Origin: Eledone cirrhosa
Taxonomy: Eukaryota
Assembly: GCA_964016885.1 (NCBI GenBank)
Contig: OZ024741.1
Location: 371,938,001-372,002,000 of the forward strand
Reading direction: 5' to 3'
DNA: 64,000 nt
Positions 17,327 to 19,610 of the stretch are shown one piece after another (within the stretch, counting starts at the first letter, position 1; each line of letters begins with the position of its first letter). Below the pieces are notes generated by a model. The model saw only the letters and a list, made by a program, of their open reading frames with translations. It made no database searches and had not been told where the DNA came from. A program made the translations under genes and the position numbers.

Positions 17327-18890
17327 CAGTGGCGTAGCTAGGGTGTGGCAAGCAGGGCACATACCACGGGCGCCATATTTACGGGGGCGCAATTTCGACC
17401 TAGATCGATTTAAACCCATGTCGTTTTTATCATTTTTTAAAATATAAGCCAAAAATGAAGCATGTGATTTCTTGATAGCCGACTTCTACGCCATGTCTAG
17501 TGCACTAAACAGAGCAGATGTCTGATTTGACCTCACAACCCCCCCCCCCCCTCACACACACACTGACTGAAGGGACGTAGTTTTAGACGTGCAACTGGTG
17601 GACACGCAGGCGCTATTTTTAGCAATGCATTGCAATGACCAATACAAGATAATTATAATTATGAAGCTGGTTTACAAAACAGAGTAGTTTGTCTTTTACA
17701 ACTGGTACATAAGACGTATAGAAAAGGTATCATAAGCCAAATGGCCAGATAGGATTGGATAGCTTCTATTAGGAATTCAATTTGACTCCAGTTTAGATGG
17801 TTCAATGTTTTCTTCTATAATACAGTTCGTCAGAATTTACTAAATCGTATCCAAAAAGCAAGATACTGTGGTCTGCTGATTGATTCGACCCCTGACCAGG
17901 TGCACCGAGAACAACTGTCAAAAGTTGTGCGATATGTCGATGTTGATTTCAATATGAAGACGGTCATTGTGAAGGAATCTTTTCTTGGATTCATTCAAGT
18001 AATCAAAAAAGATGCCGCAAGCCTTGTTGAAACAATCGTGAAAGAGTTAGAAAAAGATGACCTACCACTGCAGAACTGTCGGTTGCAGTGCTACGACAAT
18101 GGCTGGGCACCGCAGTGGGGTTCAGCAGAGAATGAGAGAGAAGAATAATTTGATTCACTTCGATAATTGCGATAACCATTCACTTAATCTGGCTGGTCTT
18201 CGTGCAGCCAAAAACGATTCTGCTATGATGAACTTTTTCAGTTGCATTGACTCGTTATACAACTTTTTTTCTCGTTCAACACGACGATGGGAATCCCTTA
18301 AAGAAGTTGCTCCAGTGGTTGTTAAATATCCTTCCGACACGCGATGGAGTGCTAGATGTACCGCAGTCAGACCGGTGACGAATTATTTGACGCTGATTGT
18401 TCAAGTTCTCGAAAAAATTAGTGATGATGAAACAGAGACATGCAAGAGTAGAAGTGATGTCAGTAATCTCCATAATCGGATACTGAGTTATGAATTCCTG
18501 AACTTGATTGGATTCTGGAACATGGTTCTCTCACGAATTGACCAGGTTCAAAAGAGACTTCAAGATCCAAGAATGATTTTTCACGATGCTGCAGCTGATA
18601 TAGGAGCCCTTCAACTTTATTTTAAAGAAGAAGGAACATCCTTAATCCACGAGTCTCTTGAAGTGGGCTTCGACCTCTGCCAGAAATTGAATGTCGATTT
18701 TCCGACGAGGCGAGGAAGACGACAAATGAATACCGAAACTACTGAGGACGTCGAGGTGGCTGCCAGAAAAGTGATAGAGAGAGCAATGCAAAGTTCACTC
18801 AATCGTCTTCAAATAGAAATGGAAGAACGGTTTATTCTACTCAAGTTTTGGCTTTCTTCTTAATGTCAGCTATCTGTTTTATTTGGCTAA
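17327..18890 (+). mobile_element. hAT DNA transposon remnant (ZMYM1/52-kDa-repressor-like transposase)
   Basis: TIR-like cagtggcgtagctagg; DSTPD..HREQLSKVVRYV..ESFLGF, QCYDN, CDNHSLNL, TRWSAR motifs with a frameshift. Confidence 0.85.
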
Positions 18891-19610
18891 TAAGCTAATA
18901 AGCTTGAAACTAGTACATCGTTCCTTTGTCAGTGTTGAACAAAAGGGCAACGATGGTTGCTAAACACTGTACGGCTTAATTCGGGATGTTTGTTTACAAA
19001 CAAACCGAACATTACACTAAATGCTCGGTAAATCCATACGTACATATATATATATGTGTGCATGTATGTATATATATACATACTACTGTACGTCTGTATA
19101 CATATATGTATGTACGTATACATACTTATATTTAAGTAACAGCCGTACTAAGAGTGAGAAATGAAATTTCGTTTCATTTTTTCCATTTATCGTTTTCGGT
19201 GCGCCCGGCCGATTAACTCACTCGATATGCAAATTAGGCTGCTCAGCCGTTAATATGCATAAGGAAAGTATATACTTTCAGACGTTCAATCATATGGCAG
19301 GAAGGTATACGGTGTTGACGATAGCTAATAAGCTTGAAACTAGTACATCGTTCCTTTGTCAGTGTTGAACAAAAGGGCAACGATAGTTGCTAAACACTGC
19401 ACGGCTTAATTCGGGATGTTTGTTTACAAACAAACCGAGCATTACAATAAATGCTCGGTAAATCCATGCGTACATATATATATGTATGTATATATATATA
19501 CATACTACTGTACGTCTGTATACATATATGTATGTACGTATACATACTTATATTTAAGTAACAGCCGTACTAAGGGTGACAAATGAAATTTCGTTTCATT
19601 TTTTCCATTT
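18890..19610 (+). repeat. 430-bp tandem non-coding unit bounded by hammerheads (retrozyme-like family C)
   Basis: GAAACTAGTA-catcgt at 18906 and 19336 (period 430); full motif 19309-19351; second locus 39340-40075. Confidence 0.8.

Follow-up and report, generated by a model that had tools for sequence, protein, structure and literature searches.

Judged from its sequence, the stretch at positions 18889-19612 of the window (the whole 64,000 nt of Eledone cirrhosa DNA analysed here) is probably an inactive insertion, truncated at the 5' end and with one arm only, of a non-coding family whose 430-nt unit bears a hammerhead (family C), i.e., a metazoan "non-LTR retrozyme", likely mobilised by the reverse transcriptase (RT) and endonuclease of a Penelope-like element (PLE). 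The retrozyme class and the hypothesis of its mobilisation by PLEs are set out in PMC7229834. Family C is an ordinary member of this recently described class, and it is young and abundant genome-wide, with thousands of scattered copies. For animal retrozymes, a recent class, a way back into DNA has so far been a matter of proposal. The focal locus is ordinary as well; it is the family that supplies thousands of young insertions, two sharp start points, a regular two-armed build and a terminal motif in common with one abundant PLE family. These features make the statement that PLEs probably mobilise retrozymes specific with regard to the RNA sites of priming, the partner PLE and the circularity of the template.

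The focal array and its hammerhead motif

The focal array comprises 1.67 units of the 430-nt repeat, arranged head-to-tail and terminating at a (TA)n run. The tandem period reported in the earlier note is borne out by direct repeats (18893-19111 against 19323-19541, and 19049-19190 against 19471-19612) and by the 94.5% identity of copy 2 over 275 nt. The array and its left neighbour are composed as follows:

17291-18888, plus strand: fragment of a hAT-type repeated element, with DUF4371 ORFs at 17786-18148 and 18051-18863
18889-19322, plus strand: family C unit copy 1, 5'-truncated, starting within hammerhead helix II at unit position ~408
18889-18921, plus strand: half hammerhead of copy 1, with the 3' part of helix II, GAAA, CUAG and GUA|CAUCGU (by sequence inspection)
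19323-19612, plus strand: family C unit copy 2, whose last unit position, 275 (...TTTCCATTTAT), is the fixed 3' terminus of the family
19300-19360, plus strand: sole complete hammerhead motif of the array (copy 2)
within 19300-19360, plus strand: outer stem of helix I, GGAAGG
within 19300-19360, plus strand: internal loop of helix I, UAU
19309-19314, plus strand: helix I 5' strand, ACGGUG
19315-19321, plus strand: core box, UUGACGA, with C3->U at 19315
19322-19335, plus strand: helix II and its loop
19336-19339, plus strand: GAAA
19340-19343, plus strand: CUAG
19344-19345, plus strand: UA, with the predicted cut after 19345
19346-19351, plus strand: helix I 3' strand, CAUCGU

The hAT-type ORF matches Pfam DUF4371 (E 9.4e-8), and by comparison with other genomic copies the fragment breaks exactly at 18888|18889, its continuation being absent from the window. 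The unit thus adjoins a hAT truncation point, as had been claimed. An 8-nt AATAAGCT duplication marks the junction with copy 1.

GUA|C sites indeed lie after 18915 and 19345, where cuts had been predicted. Copy 1 lacks the CUGANGA box and the 5' strand of helix I, so that the predicted cut after 18915 would be unserved in cis. On its sequence the focal locus is a dead copy, with the 5' half of the motif missing from copy 1 and C3->U in copy 2. The claim that each copy carries one different defect needs correcting for copy 1, which has no point defect but is without the helix I 5' strand, the CUGANGA box and half of helix II; the copy at 39.8 kb has an A.C pair next to the core. Position 19315 reads C rather than U in nearly all contig depth of the public runs X1, X4, X5 and X6, a depth that is no measure of expression, and in 56 contigs of run X1 the unit gives way to a TA run at 19190.

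The family C motif belongs to the type I hammerheads. Its helix I has 6 bp and leads into an internal loop, helix II has 4 bp, and helix III is the palindromic ACUAGU. Helix I pairs ACGGUG with CAUCGU and includes one G.U pair; the consensus strand ACGAUG of the earlier note is not the family majority. Nor is the hammerhead truly "minimal", as helix I runs on past its 6 bp, by way of an internal loop (UAU/U), into a long outer stem. The consensus core, on which the earlier note had made its reading depend, is intact. Its majority form is CUGACGA ... GAAA ... GUA|C, the exact 36-nt core CUGACGA...GAAACUAGUA|CAUCG occurs 3352 times in the genome (control: 0), and 37 of 92 distinct sampled motifs are intact under a strict descriptor. 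With a descriptor that includes the palindromic helix III, four sites are found in the window against none in 60 dinucleotide shuffles. An intact copy aligns end-to-end with the Rfam model Hammerhead_HH9 (19.1 bits, E 0.0085; gathering score 52). No family C copy reaches the gathering score of an Rfam hammerhead model, the whole window has no match at gathering scores, and the segments 18700-19750 and 39740-39880 gave no hammerhead match even at E<=10.

Helix III consists of one A-U and one C-G pair closed by a 2-nt loop. As it is too short within one motif and palindromic, two motifs could together build a 6-bp helix III, and we infer that a second motif would be needed. Dimeric hammerheads with palindromic helix III are described in PMC4209133, as is the poor in vitro cleavage of minimal-type PLE hammerheads. 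The ACUAGU duplex alone is predicted at -6.8 kcal/mol, and the MFE of the monomer motif (-9.1) belongs to a fold that differs from the catalytic one (-7.0). The dimeric ribozyme is unscorable by a nested model because its helix III, being intermolecular, crosses over helix I, and energy models were dropped as uninformative on it.

The lack of compensatory change in any helix gives no sign of selection on the fold. Changes in helices I and II are single-sided, with no compensatory pairs among 38 full units whose copies are ~4% diverged, and the base of helix II is a U.U pair in all 38. Better conservation of the ribozyme than of the rest of the unit was considered and rejected, its divergence being 0.035 against a unit mean of 0.042. 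In the ccgagcatt-type hairpin, the pair thought to covary from G-C to A-U does so in none of the 38 full units (22 G-C, 6 G-U, 3 A.C, 2 U.C, 1 C.U, 4 gapped).

A first look at the genome yielded 1068 family C candidates. The full units (n=38) differ on average by 4% from the majority letter, and 157 of 428 majority positions (37%) are G or C. The unit folds strongly (MFE -134.5 kcal/mol, z -6.2 against 100 shuffles), with helix I holding the monomer ends together. Its ORFs are short chance ones, and an ORF with RT plus GIY-YIG is not found in the unit. A ATGCAAAT octamer and a TATA-like box lie ~30-60 nt upstream of the ribozyme, and the unit also carries a T6 run. RNA-editing scars were rejected, as substitutions display no strand asymmetry (A>G 60 vs T>C 65, C>T 101 vs G>A 85).

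Insertion anatomy of family C

Insertions were dissected in 94 arms from 54 loci and two window slices, after six overlapping loci had been dropped. Among 90 outer ends, 43 lie at unit positions 270-276, a class inflated because 30 sampled loci were picked by the site-1 junction pattern; 37 lie at 210-222 and 10 elsewhere. The outer ends of the family are thus fixed at about positions 216 and 275. There are 35 two-armed (head-to-head) insertions, all with the minus arm to the left of the plus arm, and 26 of 33 assessable arm pairs have one outer end of each class, offset by 56-59 nt. TA runs adjoin the outer ends in nearly all arms. Exact junctions with TA number 931 for the site-1 end and 2632 for the site-2 end, and site 1 (275|276) is read through exactly 993 times; the reversed-pattern controls are 0 throughout. 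Terminal copies read CCATTTAT|ATAT and internal copies CCATTTAT|CGTTTTCGG.

The arms form a 5' truncation series, from plus arms of 21-45 nt up to arms of several units, and partial tandems occur among them. Arrays range from less than one unit to at least eight (L020; L013, L020 and L024 belong to one 5-kb array). The 430|1 junction is crossed by 66 of the 94 arms. An enrichment of inner ends at the ribozyme cut site was also considered, with 10 of 93 at unit positions 1-16 against 3.5 expected (p 0.002), but did not survive inspection. L003 and L066 continue through the cut site, BLAST having missed short upstream pieces, L078 is ambiguous owing to the palindrome, and an exact start at C1 is found in L005 only. 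With this edge effect removed the inner ends no longer pile up at the cut site, and the genome hence displays no cleavage footprint.

The window holds further sites of the family:

39334-40079, both strands: second, two-armed family C insertion, TA runs flanking both arms
39334-39488, minus strand: its minus arm, outer end at unit position 219
39461-40079, plus strand: its plus arm, outer end at 275
56010-56320, both strands: diverged two-armed relative, the minus piece resembling unit positions 72-125 and the plus piece 206-253, with (TA)n between

The arms of the second insertion join at the hairpin of position 65, and this insertion holds the third motif of the window (39801-39837). Its hammerhead, mapped at 39795-39837, has an intact core, but the basal pair of helix I is A.C. 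The relative at 56010-56320 contains no part of the hammerhead. Of two diverged relatives proposed earlier it is the one upheld (scores of 31 and 49, where shuffles reach at most 21 and 24); that at 22790-22850 is marginal (22, with 19 as the shuffle maximum).

Target bias for (TA)n, 5' truncation, partial tandems and an inverted 5'-truncated copy are given as PLE hallmarks in PMC8557442, and all four are present in family C. This shape of the insertions, with arms placed head-to-head, is why we regard family C as likely copied by PLEs, and at the sequence level it supports the suggestion of the earlier note that the retrozyme was mobilised by PLE machinery.

The neighbouring PLE and competing explanations

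To the right of the focal array lies a PLE, as had been noted, with a common target in between:

19610-19708, no strand: (TA)n microsatellite, shared target bordered by the 3' end of family C (left) and the 5'-truncated PLE (right)
19709-22440, plus strand: 5'-truncated PLE copy, with RT C-terminus and GIY-YIG to 20749
~22327-22390, plus strand: pLTR hammerhead of the neighbouring PLE, a motif of its own

The tail of this PLE copy reads ...AGTTTCCATTTATTAATATCG and then passes into (TA)n. Its family, with 5114 candidates and scored copies that are 96-98% identical, is both abundant and young. The RT (YRDD) and GIY-YIG motifs were recognised by visual inspection, and Pfam gave no match on the PLE pieces or on the 738-aa full ORF. 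Atlas neighbours carry RVT_1, GIY-YIG and HTH_animal, a lead only. The last 11 nt of the family C terminus, UUUCCAUUUAU, recur in the 3' tail of the neighbouring PLE; the 11-mer is found six times in the window, three times in family C and three times in PLE tails, where 0.2 would be expected. Beyond it, blastn (word size 7) finds no similarity between the unit and this PLE. The shared terminus suggests the neighbouring PLE family as the candidate partner, although an 11-nt AT-rich match adjoining a TA run is thin evidence for a partnership.

An unlikely alternative derives the unit from an autonomous coding PLE, of which it would be the terminal repeat (pLTR) or a solo end, and takes the arrays for ordinary 5'-truncated PLE copies. 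PLE pLTRs do bear hammerheads and occur as partial tandems and inverted copies in the accounts of PMC8557442 and PMC4209133, the window contains seven PLE protein fragments, one of which adjoins the array, and the terminal 11-mer is common to both. However, the arms circle through the same 430 nt, across the unit junction and over at least eight units in L020, and never reach an ORF. Full-length copies of the neighbouring PLE contain nothing of unit C, and their hammerhead is another one. Nor do the surroundings of family C suit such an origin. Among 30 loci there is no conserved flank, only unrelated repeats at varied places, and none of the 29 other loci has a coding sequence at constant distance or orientation. 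PLE fragments lie near family C in five of these 29, at varied places and orientations, and the one in L047, the sole one checked in full, belongs to an element apart, which has terminal repeats of its own. The earlier note had named the unit being the end of a coding element as fatal to its reading; the missing constant coding neighbour and the lack of PLE likeness past the 11-mer argue that it is not.

Elements that depend on LINEs likewise have a fixed 3' end, 5' truncation by degrees and tails of simple repeats, and family C could to that extent be SINE-like and non-coding, copied by the reverse transcriptase of a LINE rather than of a PLE, with the hammerhead as a passenger. The ATGCAAAT octamer, the TATA-like box and the T6 run might then serve as internal promoter and terminator. 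We consider this improbable, to about the same degree as a pLTR origin: the arms of several units, the regular pairing of arms head-to-head with fixed ends at two sites, and the insertion into (TA)n follow the PLE pattern as described in PMC8557442, the T6 run and 275|276 are read through in the 993 exact cases, and the terminal 11-mer matches PLE tails, the tails compared being those of PLEs. Plain satellite DNA that spread and lengthened through segmental duplication or unequal crossing-over, passed through no RNA stage and bears its ribozyme-like motif by chance or as a fossil, is already disfavoured and highly improbable. Some arrays are long, such as the 5-kb one, and the ribozyme is conserved no better than its surroundings, as a satellite would have it. 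Against this stand thousands of dispersed short insertions with the same two end points beside TA runs, a truncation series that reaches ~20 nt, unrelated flanks and a motif frequency far above chance.

A proposed life cycle and known systems

For a PLE-mobilised retrozyme the following cycle can be proposed. Copies with at least two ribozymes would be transcribed, and two hammerheads would pair via the palindromic ACUAGU, form helix III and cut after GUA. A host RNA ligase might then close the 430-nt monomer, its ends kept together by helix I. Once a PLE enzyme had broken the DNA within a (TA)n run, reverse transcription would be primed by one DNA 3' end or by both, at the fixed pair of RNA sites, cDNA synthesis proceeding back across the 430|1 junction. 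Synthesis across this junction implies a template that is either a circle or an uncut multimer. The inner cDNA ends would finally be joined to each other, or to unrelated DNA as at the focal locus (the hAT fragment), and intervening DNA would probably be lost in this step.

More tentatively, and with doubt prevailing, both DNA ends of a PLE-broken (TA)n run may reverse-transcribe a single small RNA circle from the two fixed sites 56-59 nt apart. These would flank a hairpin module ending in UUUCCAUUUAU that mimics the PLE 3' tail, and the polymerases would chase each other round the circle and so produce the head-to-head, multi-unit arms. If true, the genome would record rolling-circle reverse transcription of a ribozyme-made circular RNA and name the partner element.

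Family C resembles metazoan non-LTR retrozymes as described by Cervera and de la Pena (2020, PMC7229834) in being non-coding and AT-rich, in a unit within 150-450 bp, in one type I hammerhead per unit, tandem copies and strong self-pairing, and in its coexistence with PLEs that bear their own hammerheads. In the axolotl motifs of that study, too, helix III is short with a palindromic loop, and helix II rests on a U.U. Family C differs from the elements described there in having mostly fewer than two units, two opposed arms and fixed outer ends in (TA)n. Experimentally, that class is defined by expression as linear and circular RNA of unit length; family C is assigned to it here by sequence. 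Among the literature records listed, no report of retrozymes in octopus was found.

With PLEs, as characterised by Craig et al. (2021, PMC8557442), family C shares the truncated 5' ends, the partial tandems, the placement of an inverted, 5'-truncated copy on the 5' side, the (TA)n target bias and a hammerhead near the terminal repeat. The one-end extension or "tail" of PLEs measures 30-40 bp in that study; the 56-59 nt offset in family C is a possible counterpart. Unlike PLEs, family C has no ORF and the entire element is 430 nt. Its ribozyme has canonical helix sizes, whereas the motif of the neighbouring PLE has a long helix II and a short helix I.

The short, palindromic helix III is also found in the dimer hammerheads of newt satellite 2 (Forster et al. 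1988, cited in PMC4209133) and axolotl HHR_Amex (PMC7229834). Their sequences are unrelated to family C, for which dimer cleavage is a prediction. In the preprint of Li, Clavereau and Pollet (2026, 10.64898/2026.07.22.740005), Xenopus retrozymes resemble pLTRs over long stretches, in contrast to the 11 terminal nucleotides of family C. The same preprint reports the co-occurrence with PLEs and proposes retrozymes as non-autonomous PLE derivatives, which is the relationship, that of a PLE-dependent non-coding derivative, proposed here for family C.

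The focal array and its hammerhead motif

A repeat search of the window resolves the focal array (18889-19612) into 1.67 head-to-tail units of the 430-nt repeat, with gapless repeat pairs at 18893-19111 versus 19323-19541 (spacing 430) and at 19049-19190 versus 19471-19612; its copy 2 has 94.5% identity over 275 nt (BLAST). The array is a single arm, i.e., one oriented stretch of unit C, and ends in ...TTTCCATTTAT, directly abutting (TA)n at 19610-19708. It holds only one complete hammerhead motif.

Complete hammerhead motif of the focal array
19309-19314: helix I 5' strand, ACGGUG
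19315-19321: core box, UUGACGA
19322-19335: UAGCUAAUAAGCUU
Predicted cut after 19345: GAAA, then CUAG, then UA
19346-19351: helix I 3' strand, CAUCGU

The hammerhead and the cut sites (after 18915 and 19345) proposed in the earlier note are borne out. Its core position 3 is U, not C, a change harmful to hammerhead activity, and the other "copy" in the array, at 18889-18921, is the 3' half of the motif only. None of the ribozymes of the focal array is predicted from the sequence to work, and this locus is an inactive copy of family C. A third ribozyme string of the family lies at 39818-39836; the motif at 39795-39837 has an intact CUGACGA box and A.C at the core-adjacent helix I pair. The second insertion of the window (39334-40079) is a head-to-head pair with outer ends at unit positions 219 and 275, counted from the ribozyme cut junction, 430|1.

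The earlier label "minimal" fits the architecture of the hammerhead less well than the canonical type I form of animals does. In the unit fold and in an alignment to Rfam Hammerhead_HH9, a UAU/U internal loop separates the 6-bp helix I from a long outer stem. Helix II has four pairs above U.U, and helix III consists of two pairs, A-U and C-G, closed by a 2-nt loop. The ACUAGU stretch is palindromic, and a stable helix III would therefore need two motifs, as passages of PMC4209133 and PMC7229834 describe for newt, axolotl and Penelope-like element (PLE) motifs. Counting against the hammerhead assignment, Rfam hammerhead models gave no match at gathering score anywhere in the window, and none even at E<=10 around its family C copies; an intact family C copy scores 19.1 bits on Hammerhead_HH9, below the cut-off of 52. 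Our own descriptor, which requires a palindromic helix III, found four sites in the window versus none in 60 dinucleotide-preserving shuffles. At 60850-61130 (minus strand), a G+C-richer unit carries another well-formed hammerhead, also of type I, that belongs to a separate family: GACCGUC CUGACGA AGGCCAGUCAAGCCU GAAA UGCA UA GACGGUU, with a 7-bp helix I and palindromic helix III AUGCAU.

On its left side the array breaks from the hAT fragment exactly at 18888|18889, a junction marked by microhomology of GCT and by duplication of the 8-nt AATAAGCT. About 40 other hAT-type copies (92-94% identical) run past this switch, and the rest of the hAT element is found nowhere in the window. Probably the inner cDNA end of the array was attached to a DNA end some distance away and the intervening DNA was lost. 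Tandem repeats elsewhere in the window comprise a G/A-rich 117-bp repeat at 7622-8018 (3.4 copies, 96% matches) and an adjoining 53-bp repeat at 8109-8260.

Ribozyme and unit across the family

The family core is intact. The majority motif in 30 other genomic loci is ACGGUG CUGACGA UAGCUAAUAAGCUU GAAA CUAG UA CAUCGU, and the 3.0-Gb genome contains 3352 exact copies of the 36-mer that spans CUGACGA to CAUCG (reversed control, 0). A strict test (C3, 6/6 helix I pairs, 4/4 helix II pairs, palindromic helix III) was passed by 37 of 92 distinct full motifs from 59 loci and the window; 20 others are out of register and another 35 are defective at one or more points. In contigs of four public runs, position 19315 is C in nearly all depth (906059/907429 in run X1, 12.7/12.7 in run X4). 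X1 amounts to 1381 million letters; 11208 of its contigs map to window 18893-19612, where the word depth sums to 1-2 million per bin, a figure not to be taken as expression or copy number. No run recorded as RNA contains the unit. The spacing of exact ribozyme 36-mers in different arrays is 426-442 nt (e.g., 69799561, 69800003 and 69800445 on genomic sequence G000 C1, where others lie at 43154881 and 43155321), and subfamilies thus differ in unit length.

As RNA, the unit folds at -134.5 kcal/mol (z -6.2 versus 100 shuffles); in the predicted fold, helix I holds the two termini of the cleaved monomer close to each other, and natural intact units fold alike as circles. Across 38 full units the mean difference from the majority letter is 4%, the ribozyme part being no better conserved than the remainder (0.035 versus 0.042). 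Compensatory changes are absent from every helix in these units, and the base-pair change of the previously noted hairpin variant (ccgagcatt / ccgaacatt) occurs in 0 of the 38. Given also a strand-symmetric substitution spectrum, family C copies appear to be young and to decay neutrally, having arisen from a few sources.

Variability within the unit is lowest at unit positions ~300-360 (window 19215-19280), at 0.027 versus the mean 0.042. Here lie an octamer, ATGCAAAT, a second ATGCATAA and a GTATATAC box, which precedes the ribozyme by ~30-60 nt; a T6 run occupies positions 262-267. Together, these elements could form an internal promoter and terminator.

Arms and ends of the insertions

Arms 45 nt or longer numbered 94, after dropping six overlapping loci, in 30 loci found by similarity and 30 taken in chromosome order from 931 exact terminal-junction matches. 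Among 90 assessable outer ends, 43 fall at unit positions 270-276 and 37 at 210-222, the other 10 lying outside both ranges. The 270-276 class is inflated, since the 275 junction served to select the second sample. The sequence is CCATTTAT|ATATAT in terminal copies versus CCATTTAT|CGTTTTCGG in internal copies. Exact junction strings, which may include related subfamilies, number 931 for site 1 (~275) plus TA, 2632 for site 2 (~216) plus TA and 993 for read-through of site 1, with all controls 0; 56 X1 contigs leave the unit at 19190 for a TA run.

All 35 two-armed insertions have the order minus, plus, i.e., head to head, so that the 3' ends point outward on either side, and 26 of 33 assessable pairs have one arm per end class (offset 56-59 nt). 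Plus arms can be as short as 21-45 nt. Since most arms (66/94) extend across the 430|1 junction of the ribozyme, the template would have been either a circle resealed after cleavage or a multimer left uncut. Inner arm ends at first seemed to cluster at the cut site (10/93 versus 3.5 expected), but the signal disappeared when the individual arms were inspected.

Penelope-like elements and known retrozymes

The unit does not map as the terminus of a coding element. No conserved flank was found in 30 loci, only unrelated repeats at varied places, and a PLE protein query placed PLE fragments near 5 of 29 other loci, at varying distance and orientation. The sole such locus examined further (L047) holds a separate 2.8-kb element with its own terminal repeats. 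At another locus, L043 (G000:C4:163295500-163303500), a PLE copy lies inside a 2.1-kb inverted duplication. The duplicated stretch also spans ~330 nt of flank past the PLE's TA tail, and the structure is a palindromic duplication rather than a plain insertion with two arms.

The neighbouring PLE belongs to a young and abundant family (5114 first-look candidates; scored copies 96-98% identical). Full-length copies carry a 610-bp pLTR and a hammerhead unlike that of unit C, UAUUUUAU CUGAUGA AGGCAUACC...GGUAUCCCU GAAA UAUGUA UA AUGAAAUA, a motif also present at window 22335. Likeness to unit C is limited to a TA-rich 38-mer (blastn, word size 7). Pfam gave no match on the PLE ORF; its RT and GIY-YIG motifs were read by eye, and Atlas neighbours carrying RVT_1, GIY-YIG and HTH_animal provide a lead only. 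Counting the copy at 19706-20746, tblastn gave seven PLE matches in the 64 kb; further protein fragments (5060-5287, 24250-24699, 41452-41859, 44985-45329, 58550-59364) are 30-54% identical to the neighbouring family.

The neighbouring PLE tail reads ...AUAGUUUCCAUUUAUUAAUAUCG followed by (UA)n in the five copies listed (four loci and the window). The tail of a related PLE, at 12441, has the same ending, as does the inverted counterpart of this tail at 11219; a third tail, of the minus-strand motif at 27270, reads CUUCAUUUAUUAAUAU, and a fourth PLE, at 43221, ends differently. The unit C terminus has the same UUUCCAUUUAU as the PLE tails, and the shared 11-mer occurs six times in the window (three family C, three PLE tails) versus 0.2 expected. 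This is a thin but pointed indication that family C may borrow the 3' recognition of the neighbouring PLE group.

The PLE terminal repeat at 11200-11330 (minus) and 12340-12460 (plus), in two inverted copies, carries a variant of the hammerhead, CUGAAGA ... GAAAUAUAUAUA, and its tail reads ...AGUUUCCAUUUAUUAAUAU; between the copies lie CT-rich repeats and a tRNA-like stretch (~11745-11850) with a T-arm-like GAGTTCAAATCCCGCC. The hammerhead motifs at 43221 (plus) and 27270 (minus) have helix III AUAUAUAU and a long helix II, the former lying downstream of the PLE endonuclease fragment 41452-41859 and ~100 nt ahead of a (TA)n run.

Judged by its sequence, family C belongs to a known class: sections of the literature already describe animal non-LTR retrozymes (PMC7229834) and PLE hammerheads (PMC4209133), and propose retrozymes as non-autonomous PLE derivatives (preprint 10.64898/2026.07.22.740005). 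For retrozymes, the available portions of these sources and of PMC8557442 describe no head-to-head arm pairs whose two outer ends are fixed; "head-to-head" is absent from the preprint's main text, as are "microsatellite" and "rolling" from the available text of PMC7229834. Family C insertions resemble PLEs, as portrayed in parts of PMC8557442, in their 5' truncation, partial tandems, adjacent inverted 5'-truncated copy and (TA)n bias, and perhaps in an extension at one end.
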